Assembly: GCA_963804165.1 (NCBI GenBank)
Contig: CAWDPO010000040.1
Location: 166,143 to 230,142 of the forward strand
Length of the DNA: 64,000 nucleotides
Direction of reading: 5' to 3'
Origin: an uncultured delta proteobacterium
Lineage (GTDB): Bacteria; Desulfobacterota; Binatia; UBA9968
Below, in pieces: positions 7,273-50,587 of the stretch (its first letter is position 1; each line of letters begins with the position of its first letter). The notes beneath the pieces are model-generated. The model did no database searches, was not told the DNA's origin, and was given only the letters and a program-made list of their open reading frames with translations. A program made the translations under genes and the position numbers.

Positions 7273-7288
7273 CACAAAGAATGTGCCA
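7273..7288 (-). promoter_or_regulatory. sigma54-like promoter (variant -12)
   Basis: TGGCAC-ATTCT-TTGTG about 40 nt upstream of the 7232 ATG. Confidence 0.5.
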
Positions 7289-8207
7289 AACAGTTAGATC
7301 ACTTATTGTGTGATAATTAACCGAATTTTCTCACATGGTCCGCCGTCTGTAAGTTTTTAAAGACAAGTTGAGCTGAAATTGCTTACAGCAAATTATTTGA
7401 CTATTGGGCTGTGCGAGTTGATCGGCCAGTGGCGCGCCGCTGAAAAATACGCTCCGTGAGAGCCATAGCAACTGCGCAGGCCGCGGGAACTGCAAGGCTC
7501 TAAAGGTCAAATCTTTAACCGCAGGACGAATTGAACTTGCAAGTCCGAGCTAGCGATGAGAATTGACTTTCGAGGACGGCACCTTTGAATGTCTGGATCA
7601 GAGGATCACTCCAGACTCGCTCAGATTTACACCATCTGGGCCGCCGATCGTCTCGTCATGTCGTGGAAGATCGACATGGAAGCCATGACATCCAGGGGAC
7701 GTGCCGAGGAAACTGATCCGGCGGCTAGTGGATTGGCGCGACAGCATCGCGCGGTGGAACAAGGAAAAGTGCAACTGGGCTGAGAGACAGTAAGACCGCC
7801 TAGGTAGATTTAACACGCCATTTTATTTTATTCTTCTAGCTTCAATGACTTTCATGTAGATTGCGCTCATCGTGTGGCATCGCTCGGACCAAATAATTTC
7901 AAAGATTTGCGCTGCGGCGCCATAAAATTCTCTCAAGTACGGGCCAATCCGACAATCTTGGTGAGGATATTGCAGTTGATGCAATAAAAGCTTACTAAGG
8001 CGGTAAAAGAGCCTCAACTGTGTGGATCTTTTCCGACAAATAGTAGGAAATAACGTACGCGCAACTGCTGACAATCAACACGCTGCACATCAATAAGACT
8101 TTTGGCGCGACGCGAAATGAGTAAATCTTACCGCCGAATAAAGTGCACATAAGAAAATGCACATAAGTTCGGCGAGCTTTAAAGTTAAGTTACTGGGGTG
8201 ACAGAAC

Positions 8208-9632
8208 ATGTCCGCGGGCAATCTCTTGATCGTCGACGACGATCAAAACCTAATGGAGCTGGTCCAATCGAAATTGCGGGCCGCCGGTTATGAAGCCACG
8301 TCGGCACCAACCGGACGGGACGCCTTGCAATTGGTCAAAGAGGGGATTTTCGATCTGTGCATCGTTGATCTGAGACTCGCCGATCTGGACGGCATATCGC
8401 TGATGCGTGAGTTGCACCAGGTCAACCCGGGCATGCGCGTGATCATTCTCACCGGCTACGGTAGCGTTGAGAGCGCCGTGGCGGCAATGCAAGAAGGCGC
8501 TTATAGCTACCTGACTAAACCGTTCAACACCCAGGAACTGCTGCTGCAAATCTCCAGGGCGTTGGAGAATCGCAGGCTTAATTCCGAGATCGAGCGGTTG
8601 AGGGGCCTTCTGGAAGAAACCTACGACTTTCCCAACATCGTCGCCAAGAGCGCGAAGATGCGCAGCGTGCTGGATTTCGTTTCGCGGATTGCCGGCACCG
8701 AGTCGACCGTTTATCTGCACGGCGAGAGCGGCACCGGAAAGGAAATCATCGCCAAGGCGATTTATTTAGCCAGCGGCCGAAAAGATAAGCCGTTTGTCGC
8801 CATCAACTGCGCAGCTTTGCCCGAGCCCTTGCTCGAGAGCGAGCTGTTCGGTCATGAGAGGGGATCGTTTACCGGTGCGGAAAAAACCACCCGAGGCTTG
8901 CTGAGCCAAGCCCACACCGGCACTTTCTTCCTGGACGAAATCGGCGACATGCCGTTGTCGATTCAAGCTAAATTGCTGCGCGCCCTGCAGGACCGCCAGT
9001 TTTATCCGGTTGGCAGCGAAAAGCCGGTGCAGGTGAACGTCAGAATCATCGTCGCGACCAATAAGAACTTAGAAGAGGAAGTGGCAAAGGGAAATTTCCG
9101 CATGGATCTTTTCTATCGGTTGCATGTGATTCCGATTCATTTGCCAACGCTGAGAGAGAGGAAAGAAGATATACCGCTGCTGGCCGACCGGTTCCTGAAG
9201 CAGATTTCCCAGCAGATGAAGAAAAAAATTAAGGGCATCACGCCGGAAGCCATGCGTAAGCTAATGCTCTACGACTGGCCAGGCAACGTCCGCGAACTGG
9301 AAAACACGCTGGAATACGCCGTGGCGATGACCCGCCATGACATGATCACCGAGGACGCCATTCTGCACACGAAAAACATCGCCATGAGGGGGGCGCGCTC
9401 TGACGATATAGGTCAATTCGTGAACGGCGGGACTTCGCCGATCAAGTCCTACAAAAATGCCAAGTATGAATTTGAAAAAAGCTATCTGACTTACTTGCTC
9501 AAGCTTTGCGGCGGCAGAGCCAGCGAGGCGGCGAAACTGGCGGCAAAATCCCGCACCGATTTTTATGAATTGCTGAGAAAACACGAAATCAGGATAGACG
9601 ACTTCAAGCGCCCCGAAATGAGCCAAAGCTAG
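8208..9632 (+). CDS. sigma54-dependent response regulator, GlrR/QseF-like
   Basis: Receiver; AAA+ GESGTGKE, ESELFGHERGSFTGA, FLDEIGDM, WPGNVRELEN; HTH FEKSYL...SRTDFYELLRKHEI...DDFK resembles the GlrR C-terminus. Confidence 0.92.
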   Translation: MSAGNLLIVDDDQNLMELVQSKLRAAGYEATSAPTGRDALQLVKEGIFDLCIVDLRLADLDGISLMRELHQVNPGMRVIILTGYGSVESAVAAMQEGAYSYLTKPFNTQELLLQISRALENRRLNSEIERLRGLLEETYDFPNIVAKSAKMRSVLDFVSRIAGTESTVYLHGESGTGKEIIAKAIYLASGRKDKPFVAINCAALPEPLLESELFGHERGSFTGAEKTTRGLLSQAHTGTFFLDEIGDMPLSIQAKLLRALQDRQFYPVGSEKPVQVNVRIIVATNKNLEEEVAKGNFRMDLFYRLHVIPIHLPTLRERKEDIPLLADRFLKQISQQMKKKIKGITPEAMRKLMLYDWPGNVRELENTLEYAVAMTRHDMITEDAILHTKNIAMRGARSDDIGQFVNGGTSPIKSYKNAKYEFEKSYLTYLLKLCGGRASEAAKLAAKSRTDFYELLRKHEIRIDDFKRPEMSQS

Positions 9633-9788
9633 TTTCGCCATGCGCAGTGGCTGAAAGTTTTTCCCGTCCTAATCACACCGGAAAAAGACATACGGATCTG
9701 TAGGTGAATCTCCGCGCGTCAGACGGCGCGCGTTCGCCACGCCGTCATAAACATACGACAACTGAATAGTTAGCGCGATTCATCGCAG

Positions 9789-9804
9789 TGGCACAGCCGT
9801 TGCT
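9789..9804 (+). promoter_or_regulatory. sigma54 -24/-12 promoter
   Basis: TGGCAC-AGCCG-TTGCT upstream of the 49-aa zinc-finger ORF. Confidence 0.8.
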
Positions 9805-9869
9805 CGTTAGCCTTCTGTGACCGCAGCCGAAGATTACTGCGCCGTCGTTCGTAATAGAAAAGAGGGAAC

Positions 9870-10019
9870 ATGGAGAAAGATGGGTCAGATATCAAAAGCC
9901 TCGTGAAGCCGTCCTCGGCGTTCGAATGCGACGGGTGCGGCGAGTGTTTCGGGTCCTGGGAGCGTCTCCGGCAGCATCAGGTCGATTGCAAAAGCGATGA
10001 ATCAGAGGAGTGGTTGTAA
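9870..10019 (+). CDS. 49-aa classical zinc-finger (CCHC-type) microprotein, absent from ORF track
   Basis: Manual translation MEKDGSDIKSLVKPSSAFECDGCGECFGSWERLRQHQVDCKSDESEEWL; F-x-C-x2-C-x3-F-x5-L-x2-H-x3-C; AGAGGG RBS; own sigma54 promoter. Confidence 0.75.
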   Translation: MEKDGSDIKSLVKPSSAFECDGCGECFGSWERLRQHQVDCKSDESEEWL

Positions 10020-10300
10020 CGGGATACCGCTTCGCTCTCCGATTATGAACTCGCTCAGTCGCGCCAATCTGGAAAGCGCGGATTTCGCCTGCTAAGTACG
10101 GCGGAGCTTTTTATCTGGCGCGGGCTGTCTGAGCCTTCCAGCTGATCACAAGCGGGCAATTCGACAGTTTCGGGTCACGCGGATTTCGCTCGGCGCCTCA
10201 GAACCGCCGATCGAGCGGTATCTCTGTAGCCGTTCGCTCGTGATGGCAACCCGTCACGCCGATGTGTGGTCGGTAGACAGCCGCAATCAGCAACAAAGCC

Positions 10301-14182: not shown

Positions 14183-14198
14183 GGGCACGTAACTTGCG
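14183..14198 (+). promoter_or_regulatory. sigma54 -24/-12 promoter
   Basis: GGGCAC-GTAAC-TTGCG upstream of DUF883 gene. Confidence 0.7.
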
Positions 14199-14250
14199 TT
14201 TAAGTAAGGATACGAGCAAAAACAGAAAATCTTGAACAAGGGGAAAATCT

Positions 14251-15898: not shown

Positions 15899-15976
15899 GT
15901 CGAGTTTGTGTGCGATGGTGTTTAGCCTTTTGCTTCGAAATTGTCAGACGACAAATTTGGCTGCAGGCAGAAACGA

Positions 15977-15992
15977 CGCAAGGTATGTGCCA
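15977..15992 (-). promoter_or_regulatory. sigma54 -24/-12 promoter
   Basis: TGGCAC-ATACC-TTGCG upstream of psiE-like gene. Confidence 0.8.
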
Positions 15993-16107
15993 AGTCGTGT
16001 GTCGATTACGATTGACTATCTGCAGTGAGTTTGGAAACTTCTCAATTCTGGAGCAGGCCGCGCCTCGAGTTGTTCCATTTTTGAAACACCCTCCAGGAGT
16101 TGGCCGC

Positions 16108-16123
16108 TGGTATCATCCTTGCA
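16108..16123 (+). promoter_or_regulatory. sigma54-like promoter for sod
   Basis: TGGTAT-CATCC-TTGCA; predicted start site lies upstream of the AAGGAG RBS. Confidence 0.65.
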
Positions 16124-16158
16124 CTAACTAATAAACATCAATCATCGAAAGGAGCGTG

Positions 16159-17336: not shown

Positions 17337-18977
17337 GTGGAACGAGAAGTATCATCGATTCCGACCCCGAAAACGGTCACTCCGCCGCCGCTCGATGAGC
17401 GTTTCCTGGGCGTTCTTTATAAGGGACTCATCGAAGCTGTAGTGGTCGTCGAGGCTAGTTCGCGCTCCGTGGTGTATTGGAACGAGGTTTCCGAAGCGCT
17501 GTTTAAGTTTCCCCAAAAAGAAATCCTTCATCAGTCAATGGAGCGATTATTTTCAGATTCCGCGACGGCCAAGCGAAGCTTCACTGCCGCGTTAGCGGAA
17601 ATCGAGGAAAAAGGCTTTTGGCGCGGCGAATGCGAATACCGCCGCCGGGATGGTTCGACATTCATCGCGGCGACGACTCAATCGCTGCTCAACGCGGATG
17701 GCGGTGTTTATGTCGTGGTGACCGTGCGCGACATCAGCGAAGGCAAGGAACGCGATCAAATCATTCATTGGTTGAATCAACAATTGGCCCGGCGCTTTAA
17801 TGAACGTGCCTCTGAATTGATTGCCAAAGGGAATGAACTCGCAAAGGCTGAAAGCCAGCGCCGGCATACGGAGCGGTTGCTGGAAATATTGATGCGCAAT
17901 TTGACCAATAACGCGATACTTTTTCTCAGCACGGCGGGTTGCATTAACCACTCCAATAGCGGAACGGAGCAGCTGTTGGGTTATGCCGCAGAGGAGCTTG
18001 AGGGAATGCACCTGTCAAAGCTCTTCAAGACCACTTCGGCTAATAATGATGGGGACAAGTGGGTGACAATATTTGCCCAGGCAGCGCGACAAAACGGTGT
18101 GAGAAATTATGACCGGTTGCTGCGGAAAGATGGCTCGCATTTTTACGTGCGATTGGAAGTTCTGCCGTTGCGCGGGGAGGCCGATCTCGTCGACGGCTAT
18201 TTAGTGCTCCTGCGCGATGATACCGAGCAAAGGAAAATACGCGAACAACTGAGAGAAAAGGAGCACCTGGCGACCATCGGAACGGCCACCGCCATGCTGG
18301 CTCATGAGATTAGGAACCCTCTCAACGGAATGTCGACGTCGGTGCAATACCTCGAACGGTCGTTGCACAATAGCTTCGAACCCACCAAAGAGATCGTTTT
18401 CGGCACGGTTCAAGACCTCAAAAATGAAATCGCCAGGCTGCAAACGCTGCTCGGTGACTTTCACGTCATCTCACATCCACAACAGGTTATCACTCGCTCG
18501 GTAGATCTAGCCGAAGTTATCCGCGGTCTGATATCTCTGGTTATGCCGGAGTCTCTCAAAGAGAAAATAACAATCATCGAACAGCTCGACTCTGACCTGC
18601 CCTCGATCCGGGGCGACCCCGACAAACTCAAGCAAGTATTTCTCAATCTGATCAAGAATGCCTTTGAAGCCATGACCCATGGCGGAACGTTGACGGCGAA
18701 GGTGTATGCGCGGGGCGACGGTGTCTGTGTCGAAATAACGGATACCGGGGTGGGAATTCCGGATGGTCTCGACGTATTTGATTTGTTTCGTTCGACCAAG
18801 GCGCACGGAACCGGTTTAGGTCTTCCGATCGCTCGGCAGATCGTTTTGGCGCACAATGGTTTCATCGATTACACGAGCCAGTTGGGGGTGGCGACCACAT
18901 TCCGCGTGTTCCTGCCGATCAGCGCGGCGACCGCAATGACTTCGGAAGGCGCGGCCTCTCGATTTGAAGAACGCTAA
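17337..18977 (+). CDS. PAS/PAS cytoplasmic histidine kinase
   Basis: RRDGS and RKDGS PAC motifs; LAHEIRNPL; NLIKNAFEAM; DTGVGI; GTGLGL. Confidence 0.92.
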   Translation: MEREVSSIPTPKTVTPPPLDERFLGVLYKGLIEAVVVVEASSRSVVYWNEVSEALFKFPQKEILHQSMERLFSDSATAKRSFTAALAEIEEKGFWRGECEYRRRDGSTFIAATTQSLLNADGGVYVVVTVRDISEGKERDQIIHWLNQQLARRFNERASELIAKGNELAKAESQRRHTERLLEILMRNLTNNAILFLSTAGCINHSNSGTEQLLGYAAEELEGMHLSKLFKTTSANNDGDKWVTIFAQAARQNGVRNYDRLLRKDGSHFYVRLEVLPLRGEADLVDGYLVLLRDDTEQRKIREQLREKEHLATIGTATAMLAHEIRNPLNGMSTSVQYLERSLHNSFEPTKEIVFGTVQDLKNEIARLQTLLGDFHVISHPQQVITRSVDLAEVIRGLISLVMPESLKEKITIIEQLDSDLPSIRGDPDKLKQVFLNLIKNAFEAMTHGGTLTAKVYARGDGVCVEITDTGVGIPDGLDVFDLFRSTKAHGTGLGLPIARQIVLAHNGFIDYTSQLGVATTFRVFLPISAATAMTSEGAASRFEER

Positions 18978-19302
18978 GCTGCGTGATTCTCCCTCCGGCC
19001 ACGCAGGGAAGATTTTCGTACGACATCCTCCTCGAGGTGGCCTTGTAGTGCAAATCGGCTTTCGCCGCAAGACGAAAACGCCATTTTCAATCTCGTGCCA
19101 GCAGGAAATGGCATCTCGCTCGATTTTGTAACGGTAATAGAACGAATTCTTCAGCGCGTGTCGCAATAAGGGGACAATTCACGAACAAAAATGCAAGAAA
19201 TTTTACGTTGGTATGAGCATTGCTGAATTATTTTACTATTATTCAACCAACGTTTCGCAGAAACAGGCAATCGAATCGAGAAACCGAGGGGAGAAGACGA
19301 AA

Positions 19303-21217: not shown

Positions 21218-21298
21218 CTTCCATTATTGCGCCCCGGTGTCTGCCTTAGCTTTCAACCTTTGTGAATGTGAAAAAAGTTACCGTCGTTTAGTAAATCG

Positions 21299-21314
21299 AG
21301 CAATCGACGTGCCA
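21299..21314 (-). promoter_or_regulatory. sigma54 -24/-12 promoter
   Basis: TGGCAC-GTCGA-TTGCT upstream of DUF296 gene. Confidence 0.8.
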
Positions 21315-24046: not shown

Positions 24047-26566
24047 TCAAAGCCGTTTCATCATCTTCTCCGTGATTGCCCTTCGGGCTGCTTCAAAGTC
24101 GTCCCACGGATCTTTCTTCAATCGCTCCAGCCGCTTTGGCACTGTGTGCAGGGTAAATTGTGTACGCACGTCGTCTTTCAGTTCCTGCCATCTTAGCGGC
24201 AGCGAAACCGGCGCGCCCGCTCGCGCCCGCGTGGAATAAGCGCATACCGCAGTGGCCGTTTTGGCGTTGCGCAGGTAATCGATAAAAACCTTATCCTTTC
24301 GCTTTGCTTTGGACATGGTCGCTGTGTACCGGTCGGGTCTCTCATGAACGATGCTTTGAGCGACGGCTTTGGCAAATTCCTTGACAAACGTCCAATCTTT
24401 TGTCGGCTTGACAGGAACGACGACGTGCAGCCCTTTGCCTCCGGTGCTCTTGAGAAAGGCGCTTAGACCGAGATCGGATATGCGCTTTTTGAGCGTCATC
24501 GCGGCGTCTTTTAGCGCGGTCCATGATAGAGTCACGTCCGGATCGAGATCGAAAACCAACTGATCGGGCTGCTCGATATGTTCCGCGCGCGCTCCCCAGG
24601 TGTGGATTTCCAAGACGCCCATTTGTACGAGTGCGATCAGGCCGGAGAGGGAATCGATCGAAACGTAGGAAGCGATAGATTTGTTGTCTTTAACGCGGAT
24701 GGCGCCAATCGCCGGGTCGAGCGATTCGTTGGTGTGGCGCTGGTAGAAGCACTGCTTGGCGTATCCTCCGGGGCAACGCACTAACGTGAGCGGACGGCCC
24801 GCGACGTGTGGCAGCATCCAGTCGGCGACGCTAGCGTAGTAGTGCGCGAGATCGAGCTTGGTAATTCCCTGTTCGGGATAGAGCACGCGGTCGGGATGGG
24901 TCAGTTGGATTCCAGCGATCTCGCGAGCTGCGCCGTTACCCTTGTTTGACGTAACGACTTTGGCGGTGGAAGCCGCTTCTTCACGCTGAATTTCATCCAC
25001 CGGTTTGTCTTCTCTCAGATCTTTAAAGGAAGGGTGGCGGAGCAGTTTGTCATTGGTCCATGCGGTAAATGCCACTTCAGCGACGAGCTTGGGTTTTATC
25101 CAGTGGACGCCTTTCGCTTGTCGGCGCGGTGGAGGATTGGCAAAGGGAGATGACTTGATCGCGAGCTTGTTCATACGAGCGCGGAGATCGCGCAAAGTCG
25201 TTTCGGTAAACCCGGTGCCGACCCGTCCCGCATAGCGCAGGGAGTGGTTATCATCATAAAATCCGAGCAATAGCGCGCCGAATGCGGTGCGCGAACCGGC
25301 AGGATCGGTGAATCCGCCGATGACAAACTCTTGGCTATGCACACATTTGATCTTCAGCCAATCACGGCTGCGGGTGGGACGATAAGGCTGATCCGCTCTT
25401 TTCGAGACAATCCCTTCGAGCCCTGCTTTGCACGCCTTTTCGAAAAGTTCATCGCCCTGCGCGATCCAATGGTCGCTGTAACGTATCAACTCAGGGGTGG
25501 CGGCTTTCGTCTTTGGTTTGAGGAAGCTTTCCAGGGTTTCTTTGCGCGCCGAGAGAGGCGCGGCAGTAAAATCCCGCCCGTTCAAATAAAGCAGGTCGAA
25601 GACAAAATAACTTAGATTGACCGGCGCGTGTTCCCTCAGGGAGTTTTGTAAAAGCTGAAAATCGCTAGTGCCGTCTTCCTTGAGGGCGACGATCTCACCA
25701 TCGAGAAACGCCTGGCGCGCGGGGAAATTCTTCAGCGCATCCGCGATCACGCTAAAGCGCTTGGTCCAATCATGCGCTTCGCGGGTCAGTAATGTGACTC
25801 GCCCTTTATCGATCCGAGAGAGAATGCGATAACCGTCGAACTTTAGTTCGTGCAGCCATTGATCTCCCTGCGGCACTCGATCGACCAAAGTTGCGAGCTG
25901 AGGTTGATAGAACGCAGGCAGCTTTGCCTTTTTGCTATCTTTGACGTGCGCGGGGGTTTTTGTTTTCGTGCGCCTCCGCTTTCCATGACCTTCGTGGCCG
26001 CCGTCGTTCTTCTTAATCTCTTCGATTAATCGTCCCGATTTTACGCTTGCCGGTTGCTTCGCTTCGATGTCATCCCGCCCCGCGTTCTCGTCTCGTTCTT
26101 TGATCAATAGCCAACTTCTGTCTTTCGCGTGGTTTTTTCCTTTCATGCGTACCAAGGTCCAAGCGCCTTTAAGTTTTTTGCCGTGGAGACGGAACTTGAG
26201 AATGCCGCGGCGCCGGCCCTCGAGCGGATTTCCTGAGGGCTCCCATGTGCCGCGGTCCCAGACGATGACCGAACCCGCTCCATATTGGCCGGTTGGGATG
26301 GTTCCTTCGAAATTTCCATAATCGATGGGATGGTCCTCGACCTGGACAGCCAAACGGCGGTCTTTCGGATTTTTACTGGGGCCCTTGGGCACGGCCCAAC
26401 TCGCCAAGGCGCCGCCCATTTCGAGGCGAAAATCGTAATGAAGTCGGCGTGCCGCGTGCTTTTGCACGACGAAAGATGATGTCTTGTCGGCGCGTGAGAT
26501 TTTTTTTCCGGCCGGCTCGGGAGTTTTACGGAAGTTGCGCTTGCGGCGATAGGTTTCCAGATCCAT
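24047..26566 (-). CDS. ligD: NHEJ DNA ligase D (PE-ligase-polymerase)
   Basis: QKHAARRLHYDFRLE; ELKFDGYR; LEGIVSK; FDLDPD, STGGKGLHV, FIDYLRN. Confidence 0.97.
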   Translation of the reverse strand: MDLETYRRKRNFRKTPEPAGKKISRADKTSSFVVQKHAARRLHYDFRLEMGGALASWAVPKGPSKNPKDRRLAVQVEDHPIDYGNFEGTIPTGQYGAGSVIVWDRGTWEPSGNPLEGRRRGILKFRLHGKKLKGAWTLVRMKGKNHAKDRSWLLIKERDENAGRDDIEAKQPASVKSGRLIEEIKKNDGGHEGHGKRRRTKTKTPAHVKDSKKAKLPAFYQPQLATLVDRVPQGDQWLHELKFDGYRILSRIDKGRVTLLTREAHDWTKRFSVIADALKNFPARQAFLDGEIVALKEDGTSDFQLLQNSLREHAPVNLSYFVFDLLYLNGRDFTAAPLSARKETLESFLKPKTKAATPELIRYSDHWIAQGDELFEKACKAGLEGIVSKRADQPYRPTRSRDWLKIKCVHSQEFVIGGFTDPAGSRTAFGALLLGFYDDNHSLRYAGRVGTGFTETTLRDLRARMNKLAIKSSPFANPPPRRQAKGVHWIKPKLVAEVAFTAWTNDKLLRHPSFKDLREDKPVDEIQREEAASTAKVVTSNKGNGAAREIAGIQLTHPDRVLYPEQGITKLDLAHYYASVADWMLPHVAGRPLTLVRCPGGYAKQCFYQRHTNESLDPAIGAIRVKDNKSIASYVSIDSLSGLIALVQMGVLEIHTWGARAEHIEQPDQLVFDLDPDVTLSWTALKDAAMTLKKRISDLGLSAFLKSTGGKGLHVVVPVKPTKDWTFVKEFAKAVAQSIVHERPDRYTATMSKAKRKDKVFIDYLRNAKTATAVCAYSTRARAGAPVSLPLRWQELKDDVRTQFTLHTVPKRLERLKKDPWDDFEAARRAITEKMMKRL

Positions 26567-26593
26567 GGCGCGGTGCGCGTTTTCCGGCGATGA

Positions 26594-27484: not shown

Positions 27485-27745
27485 ACATGCCCTTGCGGAT
27501 TTCTCAGATTATGAAAGGGGTTTCTTGTTTCTCGTCGTACATGGCTCGCCGCTACGATGTCGCACTTTGGTCGTGCGGCCAAGCGATTCGGGATCCGGCG
27601 AGGCGCCACGAGATTTTCGCTTTCGCCTATTTCGCGGTCTTCGAGCCATTTACTGAGCCACCATTCCCGTTCCAGCTCCCGTTACTGGGAAGAAAAATCA
27701 CAAGTAAGCCGGTGATCGGCAAATCTTTCGTGCTGGGCTTCTTGC

Positions 27746-28177
27746 CTAACGTTTGGGTTCCGCGGGCGCCGAAATTTCTTCCAAGGTCTCACCCGACAGA
27801 TCTCGGTCGCCGACATGGACGGCGATGTCGCCTAGACTAACTATGCCGACCAGACGCTTATCCTGATTGACCACCGGTAAGCGGCGGATTTGCCGCGCTT
27901 CCATGACACTCACGGCTTCTTCGATTTCTTGATCTTCGAGACCATAGGCGAGGTCGGTCGACATGACCTCGCTGACCTTGGTTTTGGCGGGGTCGCGGCC
28001 GTCGGCCGTAGCTCGAATCGTGATGTCACGATCGGTCAAGACGCCCTTTAGCCGATCGCCATCACAAACCGGAATAAGACCGACGTCAAGCTCTTTCATC
28101 TTTCTTGCCGCATCCTTCAACGACGCACCGGATTTAACGACTTCCACGTTACGGGTCATAATTTCTCTTAGATCCAT
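27746..28177 (-). CDS. Tandem CBS-domain protein
   Basis: GVLTDRDITIR, QIRRLPVV, GIVSLGDI. Confidence 0.93.
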   Translation of the reverse strand: MDLREIMTRNVEVVKSGASLKDAARKMKELDVGLIPVCDGDRLKGVLTDRDITIRATADGRDPAKTKVSEVMSTDLAYGLEDQEIEEAVSVMEARQIRRLPVVNQDKRLVGIVSLGDIAVHVGDRDLSGETLEEISAPAEPKR

Positions 28178-28199
28178 GGATGGGGTTCTCCTTTTTTTA

Positions 28200-29441: not shown

Positions 29442-29475
29442 AAAACTAGTTGGCATCACGGCGGGAGGTACTTTT

Positions 29476-31366: not shown

Positions 31367-31377
31367 GGTCAACCTCC

Positions 31378-34233
31378 TCAAGCCGTTGACGTGGCCGTTT
31401 GTGCCTCTTGTTTTAGTGATTGGTCATCGTTCGGGCTAGCGCCAAAGGCTTTGTCGAGCAATTGTTTCTGCTGCTCTTTGTGCCGGGTGGCAGAACCGGT
31501 CGCAGGGCTGGCGGATGGCGGGCGCGCAACCACGGAAACCGGCCTCTTGTTGAGCGCGCGATTGTTGAACTTCAAACTCAAATACCACCAGGCGCCCATA
31601 TTTTCCGGTTCTTCCTGAACCCAGATTAGCGGCGTGTTCGCCGGATATCGGGCCAATAAAGATCGCAAAACTTTGTCCGGAAACGGATAGAGTTGCTCGA
31701 GCCTAATCAAAGCGACATCGTCGCGGCGCTGCTCTTGCCGTCTATGATCAAGATCGAAATAGATTTTGCCGCTACAGAGAAGGATGCGACTCACGGAACG
31801 TGGCGATCCATCAGTCAGATCGCTGATAACCGGCTGAAACTGCCGATCGGAAAAATCATCGAGAGATGAAACCGATTTTGGATGGCGCAATAGGCTCTTC
31901 GGGGTCATCACGATCAGCGGTTTGCGCCATTTCCGTAAAGCTTGACGGCGCAAGCAATGGAAGTATTGCGCGGGGGTCGTCGGATAAACGACTTGGATGT
32001 TGTCCCTGGCGCCTAGCTGTAAAAAGCGCTCCAGGCGCGCGCTGGAATGCTCCGGTCCCATACCTTCAAAGCCGTGCGGCAGTAGCATCACCAGCCCGCT
32101 CAACCTGCGCCATTTTTCTTCGGCCGTGGTGATAAACTGATCGATGATGACCTGTGCGGCATTGGAAAAATCACCGAACTGCGCTTCCCAAAGCGTCAAA
32201 CCATCGGGGCAATCGAGACTGTAGCCGTATTCAAAGCCCAGCACGCCGGCCTCGGACAATGGACTATCGTAGATCTCAAAGGACGCTTGGTCGCCGCCGA
32301 GATGTTGTAACGGGACATACGTCTGGCCGTTTTGGTAGTCGTGCAGCACGGCATGACGGTGACTGAATGTGCCTCGGGCGCTGTCCTGACCGCTCAAACG
32401 AACGTGTATCCCTTCGTCTGCCAAGCTTGCAAAAGCCAGCGACTCGGCCGCGGACCAATCGAGGGCAAGCTCTCCGGCCGCCATTTTTCGCCGTGCTTCC
32501 ACCGCACGCGCGATTTTCGGATGGGGGTGAAAATCGTCCGGGAGTTGCGTCTGTGCTTCGAGCAAATGGGTAAGCCGGGAGATTTCGATGTCTGTCTTTA
32601 ATTCATCGGCGCTCGGTTCAAGGCCGCCTTGGTAGCCCGCCCAAATGCCTTGCAGCTCTTCGCGCACCGGTGCATGATTTTCATCACGCGCCGCCGTCAA
32701 TTCCTGATCGAAGCGCTGCACTCGCGCCGCTTCCATATGGGCCGCTTCCTCGACAGTCACCCGCTGGAGCGAAAGCAAACGTTCGAGATAAATCTCGCGG
32801 ATATTTTTTTTCTTGCCGATCGCCTGGTACATACGTGGCTGGGTGAAGCTCGGCTCGTCGCCTTCGTTATGACCTAGGCGCCGGTAACAGTACATGTCGA
32901 TGACCACGTCCTGGCTAAATCGCGCGCGAAACTCCAGAGCGAGTCGGACGGCATAAGCGACGGCTTCCGGTTCATCGCCGTTGACGTGGAAAATCGGTAT
33001 CTGCAGCATTTTCATCACGTCGGTGGCGTAAGCCGTCGACCGCGCCGCGCTCGATGGCGTGGTGAAGCCGATTTGATTGTTGACGACGACGTGAACCACG
33101 CCACCGACTCTATAAGCATCGAGTCTCGCCAGGTTCATGCCTTCTTGAATGATGCCTTCGCCGGCGAGAGCCGCGTCGCCATGAATCAACAGCGCCATGG
33201 TGCGCGTGCGTTCGCGATCTTGCCGCCGGTCTTGCTTGGCGCGCACCCGTCCGAGCGCGACGGGATTGACGAATTCCAGATGACTCGGGTTAAAGCAAAG
33301 CGAGAGATGCACCTCACGCCCGCCGTGCGTGCGGTAATCATGGCTGTGGCCCAAATGATATTTGACGTCGCCGCTGCCGTCGGCGTGGGCGACCGACGGA
33401 TCGATGAACTCGCGAAATATTTCCCGAGGCGGTTTGCCAAGAATATTGGCGAGCACATTGAGCCGGCCGCGATGCGCCATCGCTAAAACGATTTCCTCGA
33501 CGCCTTGATCGGCGGCTTTTTCGATGGCGAATTCGAGGAGCGGAATCAGGCTCTCCGCCCCTTCCAGCGAAAAACTCTTCGCACCCAAAAACTTTTTGCG
33601 AATAAACTGTTCGAAGCACTGAGCGTCGATCAGCCGGCTGAGAATACGCATTTGGTCGGCGCGATCGAGCTTCGAGCGGTCTTCGATTCGCTCGATGCGC
33701 TCTTCGAGCCAACGCTTTTGTGTGAGATCGGCAATATGCATGAACTCAAAGCCGATCGGTCCGCAGTAAACGTTTTCCAGCCATTGGACGCATTCACGCA
33801 GAGTCAACGGCGCACTGAGACGGAGCGATTCCGAGGCAAACAGCTTGTCCCTGTGCGATTCGGTGAAGCCGAATCCTTCGGGATCGAGATCGACGACCGC
33901 GAGATTGCGCAAGTTCAATGGATCGATGTGCGCTTTCAAATGGCCGAAGGTGCGATAGGCCTGGATCATTTCGTCGAGTTGGGTAGATGGCATCAAATGA
34001 GACGCCGTCGCTGGGATGGGTTCTCTGCCGTCTAGTGGTGTCGAGCTTTCGACAGCCCGAGTCGATGCAGCATCACGGGGGGATTTTAGTTGTGGGGTGT
34101 CCTGTTTGCCGTTCTCGGTCGTTTGCGCGAAGTAATGCCGCCATTCGGCCGGGATCGAGGACGGATCTTTTAAGTATTGCTTCCAAAGCGTTTCTACGTA
34201 TCCCAGACTTTCAATGTTAATCTGTTCGCTCAT
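31378..34233 (-). CDS. sucA: 2-oxoglutarate dehydrogenase E1
   Basis: [50 protein letters not shown]; start set at MSEQ because a promoter lies within the longer ORF. Confidence 0.96.
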
Positions 34234-34414: not shown

Positions 34415-34463
34415 TGTCCTGAAAACAGGACACGAAGGATTTCTCTGTCCTAATTTTGCGACA
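34415..34463. promoter_or_regulatory. Pair of TGTC-N10-GACA putative enhancer boxes
   Basis: TGTCCTGAAAACAGGACA (34415-34432) and TGTCCTAATTTTGCGACA (34446-34463) between divergent sigma54 promoters. Confidence 0.7.
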
Positions 34464-34624: not shown

Positions 34625-35980
34625 ATGAGTTCAAATATTCTCGTTATCGACGATGAAGCATTACCGCGAAAGAATATCGCGCGGGTGCTCGCGGAAGAGG
34701 AATATCATGTCTACGAAGCCGAGAACGGCGAGGAGGCGATTAATGCAATCAACGATCTCGACTTCGATCTCGTACTGAGCGATCTCAAAATCCCCGGAAC
34801 AGATGGGCTTGGCGTTCTGCGCCATGTGCGCAGTGTTTCGCCGCAAACCATGTTTATCTTGATGACGGGTTATGCGTCTCTGGACTCGGCGATCGAAGCA
34901 TTCCGCGGCGGTGTCCAGGATTATATCCTAAAGCCGGTGGTGCTCGAGGATGTTCTGCAAAAGGTCAAGCGTCTTATGGAATCGAAGAGCTTGGCGTGGG
35001 AAGTCGAGCTGTTGCGTCGCCAGGTCAACTACAATTCAGAGTCCACCGGTCTGATCGGAGAAAGCCGCATCATCCACGATATTCTCGCGATGATTTCGAA
35101 GGTCGCGCCGACGAGCTCGAACGTCTTGATTACCGGCGAGAGCGGGGTCGGCAAGGAAGTGGTTGCGCGCACATTACATCTTCAAAGCCCGCGGAAGGAT
35201 AAGGTCTTTTTACCGGTCAATTGCAGCGCGATCCCGGAAACGTTGCTCGAAAGCCAGCTGTTCGGCTACGTCAAAGGGGCTTTTACCGGCGCGGCGAACT
35301 CTCAGGAAGGACTTTTCCAGCGCGCTCAAGGCGGTACGATTTTTCTCGACGAAATCGGTGAGATGCCGCTGAGCCTGCAACCGAAAATCCTCCGTGTCAT
35401 CGAGGATAAGGAAGTCTTGCCTATCGGTTCCACGCATCCGTCGAAGTTGAATGTTCGAATCATCGCCGCAACCAACCGCGAGTTGCAAATGGAAGTCGCC
35501 GATGGGCGGTTCCGTGAAGACTTGTTTTATCGCTTTAACGTCATCAACATTCGTGTGCCGCCATTGCGCGAGCGCCGCGAAGACATTCCCTTGTTGGTCG
35601 AACATTTGATTAACCGTCACAACGCTGAAATGAAAAAGACTTATAAAGGCATGGCCAACTCGGCGCTAAGATTGCTTATGTCCCTTCCCTGGAAAGGAAA
35701 CGTGAGGGAATTGGACAACGTCCTCGAACTCGCAATGATATTGGGCAACGGCGAATGGATCACCCCAGCAGAACTGCGCCAGTGCACGCTACCGGCGGAG
35801 GAAAGCAACATCGAGTCGCCGAACAATCTTCGTACCGCAGTTCAATCGTACGAAAAAAGCCATATCGAAAACGTGCTTAAGGAAAGTGCCGGCGACAAAA
35901 CGCGGGCCGCCCAGTTGTTGGGGGTAAGCCGCTCGTCTCTTTATCGCAAGTTAGAGAGTCTCGATATCCACGACGATTGA
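34625..35980 (+). CDS. sigma54-dependent response regulator (NtrC/AtoC family)
   Basis: Receiver; GESGVGKE; GAFTGA; FLDEIGEM; Fis-type HTH SRSSLYRKL. Confidence 0.94.
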   Translation: MSSNILVIDDEALPRKNIARVLAEEEYHVYEAENGEEAINAINDLDFDLVLSDLKIPGTDGLGVLRHVRSVSPQTMFILMTGYASLDSAIEAFRGGVQDYILKPVVLEDVLQKVKRLMESKSLAWEVELLRRQVNYNSESTGLIGESRIIHDILAMISKVAPTSSNVLITGESGVGKEVVARTLHLQSPRKDKVFLPVNCSAIPETLLESQLFGYVKGAFTGAANSQEGLFQRAQGGTIFLDEIGEMPLSLQPKILRVIEDKEVLPIGSTHPSKLNVRIIAATNRELQMEVADGRFREDLFYRFNVINIRVPPLRERREDIPLLVEHLINRHNAEMKKTYKGMANSALRLLMSLPWKGNVRELDNVLELAMILGNGEWITPAELRQCTLPAEESNIESPNNLRTAVQSYEKSHIENVLKESAGDKTRAAQLLGVSRSSLYRKLESLDIHDD

Positions 35981-39309: not shown

Positions 39310-39933
39310 CTACTGGCCGGCCACTCGTACCGTGCTCGCCTGGGGCCCCTTTTCACCGAGCTCCTCCGCATAATAAACCTCGGTGCCAACCTCTAATCGA
39401 TCGAAACCGGATTGCAGTACGCTATTTTTATGAAAGTAAATTTCACGGCCATCGGGTGTTTGGAGAAAACCGTAGTCCTCGATGGGAAAAATCTTGGCAA
39501 CACGAGCCAGCGGCGTTGACTCATGGGTCTTGGTTTTGCCGCGCCGCCGCCGCGCGTAGTCCTGTAATTTACGCGCCGCGGCATTGAAGGCATCGCGAAT
39601 GGCGACATAGGCATCTTCGTGCGCCGCGTGCTTGCTCGGCCCATGGTTCTCGGCCAATGTTTTTTCCAATTCTTCGATATGTGCTGCCCGGGCGGCCATC
39701 AGACGCTTGGGCTCACGATTGACCACCAGTTCGCCGCCCGGAACCGTCATGTCGATGCGCACAACATACGCTTTGCCCTTATGGTGGTGGCGGTGCGGCG
39801 CCTCGACGATGACCCGACAACTCATGATGTCGTCGCAGAGGGAATCCAGCTTGTTCGCTTTCTCGCGGATATTGCCCTCGATCGCTTTCGATGGCGGCAT
39901 GTCGCGAAAGGTGATCTGCAAGGGAGTTTTCAT
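39310..39933 (-). CDS. HPF/RaiA ribosome-hibernation domain fused to cold-shock domain
   Basis: PLQITFRDM...HEDAYVAIRDAF; YGFLQTPDGREIYFHKNSV...KGPQAS; AAGGAGG RBS. Confidence 0.9.
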   Translation of the reverse strand: MKTPLQITFRDMPPSKAIEGNIREKANKLDSLCDDIMSCRVIVEAPHRHHHKGKAYVVRIDMTVPGGELVVNREPKRLMAARAAHIEELEKTLAENHGPSKHAAHEDAYVAIRDAFNAAARKLQDYARRRRGKTKTHESTPLARVAKIFPIEDYGFLQTPDGREIYFHKNSVLQSGFDRLEVGTEVYYAEELGEKGPQASTVRVAGQ

Positions 39934-39984
39934 ATGTCTTCCTCCTTGGTTGATGGTTGTGTGTCCGCGCCATTCCACAAAGAC

Positions 39985-40000
39985 GGCAAGAGGTGTGCCA
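39985..40000 (-). promoter_or_regulatory. sigma54 -24/-12 promoter
   Basis: TGGCAC-ACCTC-TTGCC upstream of HPF-CSD. Confidence 0.8.
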
Positions 40001-40297
40001 TGACAGTACCATTGTCGCGCAAAAAAGCTCGCGAATAAACTGAAATTTTATCTAACTCGTTTGGCCGCCGAATCGTGGTATCGCGAGCGTGGGAAAATCG
40101 CGCGGAAAAATGACCAACAATGGCAAGTAAAGATACACTCTGTTGCGCTTGCACCTGTGTAGAGCCTCACAAGCTGTTGGAATCAGAAAACTATTTTGCT
40201 CGCATTCGGTGGCACGGATCGTCCCCCCAAAATAATCAAGGGAGAATTCGACCTCATTTTATTGACAGGAAAATAGCAAAAATAGTAGCCGGGGGTT

Positions 40298-41311: not shown

Positions 41312-42352
41312 CTATGCGAATTGGGGCTGTTGCGCAAGGGGCTGTTCAGTATTTGATATGTGTCGACTCGGTGAGATGGCGGAATTGCGCTGGTTCTCTT
41401 CGCCTCGGCGGGCGAAGAGAACCTCGCGTACTTGCAACAGCCGCTCCGGCGAACCCCAATCGCTCCAGAAAACCTGCAGCACCGGCAAGATTGAGATTAT
41501 CTCAGGGTTCGTGGCGGCGACCAATTCGAGAAATCCCTTGGAGAAGTTTAGCGGTTCCAACGTTCGATACACATCGTCGATAGTATTTTTTTCGGCCGGA
41601 GTTCCGATGGCATCGTAGATACGGCTGAAGCGCTCATGCGTCACTGGGTAAAGCCTGTGCAGGATCGTCAACAGAGTCCGAACTTTGAAGACCATGATCA
41701 TGGTATTCCACAGACCGCCGGCATCGACTAGATGCCCCGCCGTCTTTCGATCCGGCTTCTCGATGAACTTCGCGGTGTTGCGGATGCCCCAGAGGTTCAG
41801 GCGTCCATGATTTTCGCGCGGCACCACGTAGCCGTATTCAACCTCGGGATATTGCGCTTCCATAGCGAGCAGCACGATACGGCTGGGGTCGTGGTCAACC
41901 GCTTGGGCTGCAAGCGCGACATGATCCATGAAGCGGTCTTCCTCCAAGATAAAATGGTCAGATGGAAAGACCGCCACGGTAGCATCGGGACAACGTTTGT
42001 ACAGGTGCATCAGGGGCAGGAAGATTCCGGGTCCAGTTTCCTTATTCTCCGGTTGCACAATCACGTTTTCCGGAGCCCGGCGGGCGAGCTGAAAGCGTAC
42101 TGCCTGATGGCGCAGATGCTGATTGCTCACGATCGTCACAATTTGCCGGGCTGGAATCAATTTTTCCGCGCGCGAAAAGGTATGCTCGAGCATCGAGCGA
42201 CGGCCGACAAAGTTGACATATTGTTTCGGTAGATCCTCGCCGCAGGTGTCTCTAATATAGCGTTGCAACCGTTTACCATCGCCACCGGCCAGCACCAGTC
42301 CCCAAAGCACTGAGTTACAATTTTTATTGTGATCAAGAGCAAGCATCATCAT
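41312..42352 (-). CDS. Mannose-1-phosphate guanylyltransferase-like nucleotidyltransferase (copy 2)
   Basis: LAGGDGKRL...LPKQY, QPENKETGPG, PSDHFI, FIEKP, WSDWGS. Confidence 0.85.
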   Translation of the reverse strand: MMMLALDHNKNCNSVLWGLVLAGGDGKRLQRYIRDTCGEDLPKQYVNFVGRRSMLEHTFSRAEKLIPARQIVTIVSNQHLRHQAVRFQLARRAPENVIVQPENKETGPGIFLPLMHLYKRCPDATVAVFPSDHFILEEDRFMDHVALAAQAVDHDPSRIVLLAMEAQYPEVEYGYVVPRENHGRLNLWGIRNTAKFIEKPDRKTAGHLVDAGGLWNTMIMVFKVRTLLTILHRLYPVTHERFSRIYDAIGTPAEKNTIDDVYRTLEPLNFSKGFLELVAATNPEIISILPVLQVFWSDWGSPERLLQVREVLFARRGEENQRNSAISPSRHISNTEQPLAQQPQFA

Positions 42353-42447
42353 CCGCTCCTCGTGATAGAGATCGCGCTACTACGTAAGCTAACGGCCTTG
42401 GTTCCCACGGATTATTGGGTTGCAATGCGCAGGCGTAACGTTTTTAG

Positions 42448-42463
42448 CGCAATTGTCGTGCCG
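42448..42463 (-). promoter_or_regulatory. sigma54 -24/-12 promoter
   Basis: CGGCAC-GACAA-TTGCG. Confidence 0.7.
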
Positions 42464-42739
42464 GTTGAAAATTCTTGGAAGGATATGTTTGCGGAGTCGA
42501 AGCAAAGATTTTTCCGCATCGTTGGTAGGACAAATTCTGACAAATTTCCGATGCTAAGAAGTTTTCTTGCGTTGTGGCTGGCTGGCAGCGAACATAGCGA
42601 ATGTACTGGCTGAATCGTTCCGATTCACGCCGCTTTTTTGGGCACGGTCGTGCCTATTTCTTAAGAAGTGCCGGGTCGATTACACCGTACGTGCTGCCCT
42701 CCGAGGCGACCTTTAATAAGCTTTATGGATGGAGATTCG

Positions 42740-45267: not shown

Positions 45268-46809
45268 TTAATTGAGAGTAGGATCGCCTGCTATTTCTTT
45301 CGCTGCGGAAATCAGCGGTTTGCGCCGATTGGGATTGCGCAGGATCTGTAAAGATTTCTGTTCGATCTGGCGAATCCGTTCGCGCGTGACCGCAAACATA
45401 TCGCCTAGCTCTTCGAGCGTGTAATCACGCTTTTCCTCGATGCCGAATCGTTTACGCAGCACGGTCTCCTGACGCGGGGTCAGAACTGACAGTGCTTTTC
45501 TGACTTCAGATTGCAGCAATCCTTCTAGAGCCTGACTCTCCGGCTGCGGCCGGACGCGATCCTCGACAAAGTCGCCGAGCTCATCACCGTCCTCCCAGAT
45601 CGGCGTTTGCAAGGAAACCGGCTCCCCCTGGGTTTGCACCAGCTTGAGAAGTTCAGCAACCGATACGCGCAGTTCTTTGGCGAGCTCCTCGGGGCGAGGA
45701 TCACGACCAAGCTTGCGCTGCATCTCGCGGGCCGTCTGGATGACTTTGTTTCTCGACTCCACGCGATGGACGGGAACACGGATCGTATGACCGGTGTCGA
45801 TCAGCCCACGGGTGATGCCTTGACGAATCCACCAAGTGGCATAAGTGGAAAAGCGAAAGCCCAACCGGTAGTCAAATTTTTCCACCGCCCGCATCAGTCC
45901 TAAATTGCCTTCCTGAACGAGATCCAAGAAACTTAAGCCGCGGTTCACGTATTTCTTGGCGATGCTGACGACTAGGCGCAAGTTGGCCTCGGTGAATTCC
46001 TTCCTGGCCGCCTTGACGCGGGATTCGCCTTCTCGAATACGCCGAATCTGTTCTTTTACCTGATCCGCAGGCAGTCCCACGGTCTGTTCGATCATCCGGA
46101 TCTCAGACAAACCGGCGGGTTTCTTTGCCCGTGAACGGCTGCGCGTTTGTTGTTCCAAGCTGGTCACGCGCTGCGCCAAACCTGTTAACTGGCCGATCCA
46201 TTTTTCCACCTGATCTGAAGACAGCCGGAGGCCATCGATCACGCTGAGAATTTTTTCGTCGTAGGCTTGTCCATTTTGGCTCAAACGAGCGCGCCGATGC
46301 GCGGAAACTCGAACCCGGCTCAGCTCACGGCGAAGTCGGTTCCGTTCTTCCATCAAACGAGAAAGTTTGCCGAGCTGCTTGAGAAAGGGCTTCGGATCGA
46401 CGTTACTTTGACCCTCATCATCGGCGTCATCGGGTTTGTCGATCACCTCACGCAACTCAAGCTCGCCGGAGCTAACCAAGTTGCCCAACTCGACAACACG
46501 GCGTAATACCAACGGCGTCGAGAATAATGCAGCAGAAATCTGCTGAGTGGCGTTTTCTACTTCTTTTGCCAGCTCAATCTCGCGCTCCCGGCTCAAGAGC
46601 CGTACTGAACCGATGTCCTGGAGATATTGTTGAACCGAACCTAACGCGGTATCGGGCTTTTCCTGCTCCACCTCTTCTTCTTCGGCAGCTTCCTCCGAGG
46701 ATTCGAGGTTGGCGTCGAAGTCTTGATCCTGGTCCGGTAGAACGGCGCCGACATCCTGGTCGCCCAACCCTTCATTTATGATTCTGTCATTGTCGAACGG
46801 CGGTGACAT
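45268..46809 (-). CDS. Alternative RpoD-family sigma70 factor
   Basis: Region 1.2 VQQYLQDIG; [12 protein letters not shown]; [11 protein letters not shown]; TLEELG...[10 protein letters not shown]; no recognisable region 1.1; divergent [11 protein letters not shown]. Confidence 0.9.
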
Positions 46810-49236: not shown

Positions 49237-50007
49237 TCATTCTTTGAGCTTGCTTAGCACCAGATTCACGACATCGACTGGAATCGGCACTACGATGGTG
49301 TGGTTTTTTTCTGCGGATACTTCGACAAGACTTTGTAAGAAACGCAGGTGCATGGCATTGGGCTGCTTGGCGATGATCGCCGCGGCGTCGGCCAGTTTTT
49401 GCGAGGCTTGAAACTCACCGTCGGCATGAATGACTTTGGCGCGCCGTTCCCTCTCCGCCTCCGCCTGTTTGGCCATTGCCCGCTGCATCTCTTGGGGCAG
49501 ATCGATATGCTTAAGCTCGACCAACACGACTTTGACGCCCCATGGCTCGGTCTGGGCATCTAGGATCGCTTGGATTCTCGCATTGATTTTGTCTCTTTCG
49601 GCAAGCAGCTCATCGAGCTCGCCCTGCCCGCACACGCTGCGCAACGTGACTTGGGAGAGTTGAGAGGTAGCAAACAGATAATTTTCCACTTCCCGGATTG
49701 CACGATTGGGATCCAGGACTCTGAAATACAGGACCGCGCTCACTTTGACGGAGACGTTATCCCGCGTAATGACGTCCTGCGGCGGAACGTCCATGGTCAC
49801 GGTGCGTAGGTCGACGCGAAGCATTTTTTCGACAAAGGGGATGACGTAGGTGATCCCCGGGCCGCGCGACGCGACTATGCGTCCCAGACGAAAGATGACG
49901 GCACGCTCATATTCTCGGAGAATTTTAAGACCGCTGACAAGAACGACTACGGCGATGATGAACACAGTGCCGAGCGGTCCGAGAAATTGTCCGATGAGTT
50001 CTATCAT
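49237..50007 (-). CDS. SPFH/stomatin-like (slipin) protein
   Basis: [35 protein letters not shown]. Confidence 0.93.
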
Positions 50008-50026
50008 GTCTGCCTCCGCACTAATT

Positions 50027-50071
50027 GTTTAAGCGGTTCAAGGTGTTCAAACCGTTCAAATAGTTCAAGTC
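50027..50071. repeat. 9-nt-period GTTCAA repeat
   Basis: GTTTAAGCG GTTCAAGGT GTTCAAACC GTTCAAATA GTTCAAGTC. Confidence 0.7.
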
Positions 50072-50109
50072 GTCTCAGGCTCACACCCCCGTGTTGCAAA
50101 CCGATTCCG

Positions 50110-50415
50110 TCACCCCTTAACGCAAATCACCGGCTCCAGTCGGGCGACAGGTGATGCAAGCCCGGCTCGGTCGACGACCTCGGTCACATCTTTATACGCT
50201 CCCAGCGCTTCTTCCGCCACACTGCGCATGGAACGGCTGCGAATAAGCACGCCTGGCCGGAGCGGCGAGGCTGTCGATGACCTCTTGACGCTCCGCCGCC
50301 GGCTCATGCTCTGCTAGACTCCGTGGCAAGCCCAACCGAGGTCTAAATCCATTTCTTTCGTGTTCCCGACTGGAATATTCGAAGTCGTGCCCTATGGTGG
50401 CGGCGATGAGCACCG
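50110..50415 (-). pseudogene. rtcB: RtcB RNA ligase C-terminal remnant
   Basis: ACHG..MSR; VAEEALGAYKDVTEVV...AGLA..VARLEPVICVKG. Confidence 0.75.
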
Positions 50416-50571
50416 GCTGGGGCTGCGCAGCGTGATTCGGAAATCGGCGGATGGCTGGGATCGAAGCGAACGCTCGTTGCGACTGTTGCAGCTTTGGGAG
50501 AGCTGTCGCCGAAAATTTTCAACAATGCGGAAAACATCGCCCATTAGTGGCGATAAATCGCACCTGTTTGC

Positions 50572-50587
50572 TGGTATAGTGATTGCG
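50572..50587 (+). promoter_or_regulatory. sigma54-like promoter
   Basis: TGGTAT-AGTGA-TTGCG upstream of Hsp20 remnant and USP. Confidence 0.6.

Follow-up and report, generated by a model that had tools for sequence, protein, structure and literature searches.

Here we have analysed the sigma-54 promoters of a 64,000-nt stretch of DNA (hereafter the window; positions 166143-230142 of contig C40) from an uncultured, soil-type member of the Binatia, whose genome assembly, G000, comprises 7.5 Mb and is 81% complete (G and C handles denote genomes of the class and contigs of G000, respectively). A preliminary description had proposed that the -24/-12 motifs of the window form one stress and dormancy regulon, run by sigma-54 and by two local activators encoded at 8208 (GlrR-like) and at 34625 (activator A). 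The stress and dormancy content stands, but the single regulon does not: we distinguish at least two, with different paired enhancers. As we read the sequences, two sister NtrC-type activators, A in the window and B on contig C43, probably each run a sigma-54 regulon of their own through their own paired enhancer, E1 for arm A and E2 for arm B.

Sigma-54 promoters of the window

All 13 motifs previously named are present, ten of them exact matches to the strict pattern TGG[CT]A[CT]-N5-TTGC; the weaker sites are 7288 (a GT variant, 12.4 bits), 14183 (10.8 bits) and 42463 (11.8 bits). For the minus-strand sites, earlier cited by their 3' ends, the coordinates for the T of TGGC are 7288, 15992, 21314, 29176, 34336, 40000 and 42463. 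A fourteenth, strict site, absent from the preliminary description, lies at 19209 (+) before a peroxiredoxin gene. With genes called by a custom script and products named by Pfam, every claimed site proves to be intergenic, to point towards the gene that follows and to lie 35-214 nt ahead of its start, and the three divergent promoter pairs are confirmed. The start of sucA is at 34233, and the 9789 promoter precedes a 49-aa open reading frame (ORF) at 9870 and not mdoG.

Scored with a matrix trained on 141 strict sites off contig C40, the window holds 11 sites of at least 15 bits, against 0.6 +/- 0.55 (maximum 2) in 30 third-order Markov simulations, an 18-fold excess, and its density is about seven times the genome mean (1.5 per 64 kb). 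Incorrect spacers of 3, 4, 6 and 7 nt yield 0, 0, 1 and 0 sites in the window and 32, 37, 43 and 33 genome-wide, compared with 175 strict sites at the correct spacer, 34 of which lie on C40; at 19 bits or more, 99 of 103 sites genome-wide are intergenic. The genome also encodes one rpoN and 28-29 enhancer-binding activators (28 full and one split activator domain). Judged by sequence, the 13 sites and 19209 all hold up as genuine -24/-12 promoters, intergenic and in the correct orientation. That they are chance matches or functionless relics is extremely improbable: the window does hold broken genes (a relic of an activator gene besides split genes for a YbaK-like protein and a helicase), but the sites exceed simulation, are spacer-specific, intergenic and oriented, and are conserved across the genus.

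Arm A: activator 34625 and enhancer E1

Activator A has the hallmarks of the NtrC family, namely a REC domain with its Asp, an AAA domain with GAFTGA and a helix-turn-helix (HTH) domain. Upstream of its gene lie two 18-bp palindromes, at 34415 and 34446, 31 bp apart, that define E1 as paired TGTCYCA-N4-TGRGACA. Where upstream DNA was available, all seven promoters of the closest orthologues keep this tandem (31-32 bp), which accompanies the recognition helix SRSSLYRK. An E1 matrix built from other genomes finds sites of at least 12 bits in 8/166 strong G000 promoters against 2/1844; once refined on relatives only, it finds paired sites in 10/166 promoters (eight of the ten on contig C40) and in 0/1000 AT-matched leaders. 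Across the islands of relatives, E1 is present in 22 of 62 non-training promoters, in 0 of 65 downstream and in none of nine controls.

Members in the window are the promoters 34524, 34336 (sucAB), 19209 and 15992/16108, with single sites at 29426 and 9789. The arm A gene set covers peroxiredoxin, PsiE/SOD, ADH-SDR-hemerythrin and a second sucAB, joined in relatives by CsbD, Ku, BON, YqjE and Dps. CsbD carries E1 in 10 of 30 loci and adjoins the activator gene in three relatives; Ku promoters of several relatives carry E1 too, and the Ku run of the window may have been rewired by insertion of the 268-aa gene that now belongs to it. In G018, where only a clade A activator was found, a USP promoter carries E1 (one case). 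Close named relatives of activator A are mostly from Binatia or Deltaproteobacteria.

The activator A gene is an orphan. The PAS-PAS kinase at 17337, the closest paralogue of the arm B kinase (31% over 504 aa), is our best guess for its partner; no close solved relative of its PAS domains was found.

Arm B: the sister activator on contig C43 and enhancer E2

The USP/HPF arm is assigned to an activator that lies outside the window. Activator B (C43:114490-115842; GSFTGA, helix SLSTLYRK) is 59% identical to activator A, and the two form one clade (SH-aLRT 100, quick tree); best matches to the activators in five outside genomes reach at most 44%, those to activator B in two Myxococcota genomes being 43-44%. 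In the window only a 58-aa relic of activator B remains, at a place, convergent with the group-2 sigma factor gene, where 6 of 26 related loci hold a whole copy.

HPF-CSD promoters of relatives have in common a pair of sites at about -127/-96, TTTCKCA-N4-TGMGAAA (E2), and the E2 matrix was built from 17 of them. Sites of at least 9 bits occur just before the start of activator B genes in 17/17 loci and in 0/11 activator A promoters. An enhancer upstream of the activator B promoter was considered and rejected, as alignment showed kinase coding sequence there; the E2 sites lie downstream of that promoter instead. Paired E2 precedes 13/166 strong and 9/110 weak G000 promoters versus 1/1000, and these promoters lie mostly in an island on C43, before USP, CBS, HSP20, HPF, cation ATPase and hemerythrin genes; the island also holds a Crp-family gene. 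In 78 kb of four relatives E2 is found at 11/12 strong promoters (7/8 non-training), as opposed to 1/63 in arm A regions and 0/8 in controls. Its members in the window are 40000 and 50572 and, weakly, 42463.

Activator B is preceded by a gene for a 754-aa multi-PAS kinase whose last two PAS domains match FixL. In these domains the His of the FixL haem-binding segment is aligned, a residue that we take to serve haem binding.

Could a single general-stress regulon, with 8208 and 34625 as its local activators, account for the same data? All 14 promoters of the window are of sigma-54 type, both activator genes are among them, and E1 and E2 share a core that one protein could read. But the division between E1 and E2 follows both the activator clade and the set of genes, four window promoters carry neither, no motif is linked to 8208, and no dyad is common genome-wide, which leaves this explanation very unlikely. 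Of the two local activators only 34625 is tied to a motif, E1; 8208 has neither E1 nor E2 as its own and probably serves the adjacent 9789 promoter.

Conservation in relatives

Conservation upstream of orthologues, proposed earlier as a check, is seen for HPF-CSD, CsbD and the Ku type of the window. HPF-CSD has a sigma-54 site in 23 of 28 loci, and CsbD in 12 of 30, including 11/11 of the best-scoring (opposite strand, 0/30). For Ku of the window's clade a site lies within 1.5 kb in 10/13 loci, versus 1/15 loci with upstream DNA of the other Ku clade; the GroES control has a site within 300 nt in 0/30 loci and within 1.5 kb in 5/30. The closest Ku relatives carry the labels Candidatus Binatia or uncultured deltaproteobacteria. 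As a separate observation, sigma-54-type sites recur near Ku genes outside Binatia, in Ralstonia/Cupriavidus loci (L021, L022, L026, L033, L064), in Acidobacteriota loci (L015, L017, L030, L050, L052) and in locus L012; the role of rpoN2 in Ralstonia is termed enigmatic in the accessible part of one report (PMC4371752).

Across six relatives, strong sites number 65 in 400 kb selected for the proximity of stress markers and 9 in an equal length of control DNA. Targets in these stress regions (57 scanned) include YqjE, BON, CBS, Dps/bacterioferritin, DUF3309, hemerythrin, a TreZ-like enzyme, AhpC and sucA; KatE loci of relatives, too short to reach the promoter, were left out of the counts. Two relatives, G007 (98% complete) and G021 (95%), have no match for activator A or B; neither CsbD nor Ku nor the HPF promoter is found in them, and they show the lowest site excess. 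In a survey of 121 genomes drawn from the class, in which strict sites were counted against a reversed control, G000 has the highest count (175 versus 49). The seven other genomes of its family all show an excess, and six genomes of another family of the same order show little or none.

Stress genes within a broad sigmulon

Behind strong sites outside the window lie 137 first genes, 80 with a Pfam match and 57 without. Of the 137, 19-20 are of stress type; in a comparison set of 137 random leaders lacking a site, of which 99 were annotated, the figure is 4-6 (p 0.0008-0.003). The stress-type first genes include CsbD, USP, CBS, HSP20, HPF, BON, YihY, ATP-dependent ligases, glycine zippers, DegP and a low-affinity iron permease. 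A scan of second genes in operons, which covered 61 of 86, turned up KatE, OsmC, DUF1328, hemerythrin, USPs and the classic sigma-54 target glnA. Among CsbD, BON, USP and CBS genes, 12/77 have a direct site versus 185/6165 genes overall.

Several points weigh against the two-regulon reading, or limit its reach. The list of stress families was drawn up after seeing the data, and 60 of the 80 first genes with an annotation fall outside it. No site of at least 11 bits stands at the gene or operon head of 20/28 USP, 26/29 CBS, 10/14 BON and 4/6 CsbD genes; within 330 nt of DUF296 orthologues (2/2) and of a SOD homologue no site was found. Neither paired E1 nor paired E2 was found at about 144 of the 166 strong promoters of G000; in the window four promoters (7288, 14183, 21314 and 29176, the last that of the Ku/LigD run) carry neither. 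E1 and E2 are themselves related and cross-score weakly, and mismatch dyads tested across 164 promoters against an AT-matched background gave none that is significant (best p 9e-5 in 3840 tests). Counts over relatives ignore kinship, kin not being independent, and divergent promoters share enhancer sites. The stress-sigma negatives given below are likewise limited by the 81% completeness of G000 and by an RpoS model that is proteobacterial. A single enhancer common to all promoters had also been sought and was rejected: the words returned by k-mer and exact dyad tests were mostly AT-rich, and an expectation-maximization search saturated on an AT-rich core.

Stress genes are accordingly a large minority within a broad sigmulon. 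Most members of the stress families lack a site, and sigma-54 therefore does not run the whole stress response. What stands of the earlier claim is that conserved sigma-54 promoters precede stress and dormancy genes in a genome that encodes rpoN and 28-29 activators and in which RpoS, SigB and EcfG were not found; the claim does not extend to the stress response as a whole, with about three quarters of annotated first genes being of other kinds and many USP, CBS, BON and CsbD genes lacking a site.

A further reading takes this breadth at face value, as a sigmulon of deltaproteobacterial type with many activators and few operons each, its stress flavour reflecting the gene content of the island and not a coordinated response. 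The 28-29 activators, the predominance of transport, signalling, envelope or unknown genes among targets and the many promoters without E1 or E2 agree with it, as does Desulfovibrio vulgaris, which has such a sigmulon with five stress operons in the accessible text of its description (PMC4641369). We nevertheless regard it as rather unlikely, given that stress families are enriched 4-6-fold and that E1 and E2 are each found, in several genomes, ahead of 10-25 promoters whose genes form coherent sets.

Other stress sigma factors

The 15 sigma-70 matches of G000 comprise RpoD, two RpoD paralogues of about 514 aa and 12 ECF-type factors. An RpoS model matched 0/56 genomes of the family at E<=1e-90, a cut-off that E. 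coli passes, and no SigB was found among the 15 matches of G000. SpoIIE and STAS partner-switching genes do occur, at C6:69465-73389 and C20:9184-13992, in this genome without a SigB-type sigma factor. PhyR was not found in G000, its domain matching an ECF sigma factor only. One ECF sigma gene (C39:10167-11500) gives a weak PhyR/EcfG-type domain score, is followed by a gene for a 267-aa putative anti-sigma factor and has no sigma-54 site upstream.

One RpoD paralogue, a group-2 sigma factor, is encoded in the window (region 45268-47070, minus strand) and the other at C16:5800-7344. Might this factor, perhaps with a Crp-type regulator, be the real general-stress switch, with sigma-54 as an added input? 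It is present across most of the genus, many stress genes lack a sigma-54 site, and a Crp-family gene does lie in the C43 island. But the factor does not reach the RpoS cut-offs, sigma-70-like (TTGACA-type) and ECF-like (GAAC-N17/18-GTCTAA) promoters precede its own gene in 12/12 aligned (12 of 28 loci), no link between it and the stress genes emerged, and stress promoters are canonical -24/-12 elements with phased enhancers, so we hold such a switch to be improbable. No RpoH was found in G000, and the group-2 sigma factor may therefore be a heat or envelope tier; a parallel tier is possible. A cascade from sigma-54 to the island sigma-70 factor was tried and rejected, a site of at least 11 bits being present in only 4/28 loci, scattered, with none in the window; no sigma-54 site was found before any sigma-70 gene of G000. 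In relatives the group-2 sigma gene is adjoined by that of a 375-aa protein without a Pfam match (42927-44054, minus strand, in the window), which has paralogues at C43:143172 and C16:4565, the three copies being 78-87% alike.

Features of the window

Coordinates are collected in Table 1. The 49-aa ORF (9870-10019, plus strand), which adjoins the GlrR-like activator gene, is zinc-finger-like (CxxC...H...C) and has no Pfam match; a small RNA behind the 9789 promoter was considered and dropped, with no Rfam match in the window and this ORF in its place. No terminator was seen between CBS and Ku.

Table 1. Promoters, enhancers and associated genes in the window (arm assignments are predictions from E1 and E2).
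Feature	Position	Strand	Remarks
Sigma-54 promoter (GT variant)	7272..7288	-	before BON protein 6930-7232; neither E1 nor E2 found
GlrR-like REC-AAA-HTH activator (GSFTGA)	8208..9632	+	separate clade; no link to E1/E2
Sigma-54 promoter	9789..9805	+	before 49-aa Cys/His ORF 9870-10019 and opgG/opgH-like genes; one weak E1 site at 9743
Sigma-54 promoter, weak	14183..14199	+	before DUF883 14251-14580; neither E1 nor E2 found
Sigma-54 promoter	15976..15992	-	before PsiE 15410-15898; arm A
Paired E1 enhancer	16038..16088	.	sites 16038 and 16071, 33 bp apart; between PsiE and SOD promoters
Sigma-54 promoter	16108..16124	+	before Fe/Mn SOD 16159-16782; probably arm A
PAS-PAS histidine kinase	17337..18977	+	candidate partner of activator A; E1-like site at 17230
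E1 pair (19127 weak, 19159 strong) and sigma-54 promoter 19209	19127..19225	+	before peroxiredoxin 19303-19866
Sigma-54 promoter	21298..21314	-	before DUF296/PCC protein; neither E1 nor E2 found
268-aa secreted protein, CBS, Ku, LigD run	24047..29006	-	Pfam
Sigma-54 promoter of CBS/Ku/LigD run	29160..29176	-	no enhancer within 200 nt
Single E1 site (29379) and sigma-54 promoter 29426	29379..29442	+	before lipoprotein-like ORF
sucA-sucB	29999..34233	-	behind promoter 34336; arm A
Tandem E1 enhancer	34415..34463	.	sites 34415 and 34446, 31 bp; common to promoters 34336 (-) and 34524 (+)
Activator A: REC (Asp kept)-AAA (GAFTGA)-HTH (helix SRSSLYRK)	34625..35980	+	behind E1 pair and promoter 34524
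HPF-CSD, promoter 40000, paired E2 (40079, 40110)	39310..40127	-	arm B
Nucleotidyltransferase, weak promoter 42463, weak E2 pair (42512, 42544)	41312..42561	-	
Relic of activator B, 58 aa	45099..45275	+	AAA end fused to HTH end; internal deletion
Group-2 RpoD-like sigma factor	45268..46809	-	conserved sigma-70-like and ECF-like promoters; without sigma-54 site
Paired E2 (50484, 50515), promoter 50572, USP 50801-51439	50484..51439	+	arm B

Further genes of the window lie outside the two arms. A cluster of KaiC, two KaiB, a PAS kinase, a receiver, BON and DUF3309 occupies the island edge (2-5630, minus strand), and two further related kinases are encoded just beyond the window. Broken genes comprise a YbaK-like gene in two frames (40342-40781), a short RtcB-like tail (by eye) at 50110-50229 and a Schlafen-type helicase gene in pieces at 55045-56927. 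PaaA-like ferritin-fold proteins without a paa operon are encoded at 19939-20655 (plus strand) in the window and at C43:38315-39031, both behind sigma-54 promoters, one in the region of each arm.

A model of the two arms and its meaning

Taken together, the promoters and enhancers, their conservation and their co-variation with the activator clade suggest a model in which binding, signals, direction of control and expression under stress would be as follows. The sister NtrC-type activators would have arisen by duplication in this lineage, the window being part of a stress-gene island. Phosphorylated activator A would bind paired E1 about 50-130 bp upstream of -24/-12 promoters, open these promoters by ATP hydrolysis, raise its own level and turn on protection genes of the RpoS/SigB type. 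On C43, the FixL-like haem-PAS kinase may sense low oxygen and activate activator B, which would bind paired E2 and turn on dormancy genes of the DosR type (USP, CBS, HSP20, HPF-CSD). Further activators, from the total of 28-29, would serve the remaining promoters.

For a lineage in which RpoS, SigB and EcfG were not found, the wiring of a general stress response can here be deduced from the DNA itself. It is tempting, though we put it forward only tentatively, to see in these sequences a fourth wiring of the bacterial general stress response, in which a lineage lacking these factors split survival control between duplicated activators, the first serving general-stress genes and the second, under a FixL-like oxygen sensor, dormancy genes, with enhancer half-sites that differ by one to two bases and so separate the two. 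This would be an example of enhancers diverging once their activator had been duplicated. If true, dozens of small ORFs of unknown function behind these promoters would be new stress proteins, and the first genes without a Pfam match (57/137) nominate small unannotated proteins as candidates. The host belongs to an uncultured, widespread group; the two activators, two sites and target lists could be rebuilt in E. coli.

Comparison with known systems

The mechanism of each arm is textbook NtrC/sigma-54. Regulons of RpoS, SigB and EcfG/PhyR hold such families as CsbD, BON/OsmY, DUF883, YqjE, KatE, OsmC, Dps, YihY, DUF1328 and Ku/LigD; the target families here are alike, but no such factor was found and control would rest on sigma-54 with an ATP-driven activator. 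Mycobacterial DosR and FixLJ couple a haem oxygen-sensing kinase to a set of USP, CBS, HSP20, hibernation factor and cation ATPase genes. Their output is a LuxR/FixJ-type regulator, whereas that of arm B would be a sigma-54 activator.

In the openly accessible literature we found no report of such a system in Binatia or of CsbD/Ku/KatE sets under sigma-54. One study (PMC12316311) describes USP enrichment in Planctomycetia, and its available text and 11 text supplements contain neither 'Binat' nor a Ku/CsbD/HPF COG. The sigma-54 regulome of D. vulgaris (PMC4641369) resembles G000 in its many activators, each with its own motif; as far as the accessible description goes, it serves mostly metabolism, transport and surface structures besides the five stress operons, and no RpoS-type gene set was found in it.

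The closest precedents come from Myxococcus xanthus, again as far as the accessible texts of the reports extend. PexR is an enhancer-binding protein that drives ahpC and catalase from sigma-54 promoters via dyad repeats (PMC12754779); it has a GAF peroxide sensor, the site CACCG-N6-CGGTG and a two-gene peroxide response, whereas activator A, whose predicted targets overlap those of PexR, is a response regulator that would read a different site and serve broad targets. NmpRSTU combines an NtrC-like regulator, sigma-54 promoters, paired dyads, a haem oxygen sensor and autoregulation, with CBS, USP, P-type ATPase and hemerythrin genes among the NmpR targets (PMC11841059). Compared by site, sensor and targets, it is the closest match to arm B, with USP, CBS, ATPase and hemerythrin genes behind sigma-54 and a putative haem sensor. 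The NmpR site is GCGCA-N5-TGCGC, in contrast to the 4-nt spacer of E2, and CGCA-N5-TGCG occurs in 0/166 G000 promoters; its sensor is the protoglobin kinase NmpU, whereas G000, at 81% completeness, has 0 matches to PF11563 and a FixL-like PAS kinase instead. The published precedents, NmpR and PexR, are narrower, and the arms proposed here would extend these single-stress cases to a broad protective gene set, the split between two enhancers being the new part.

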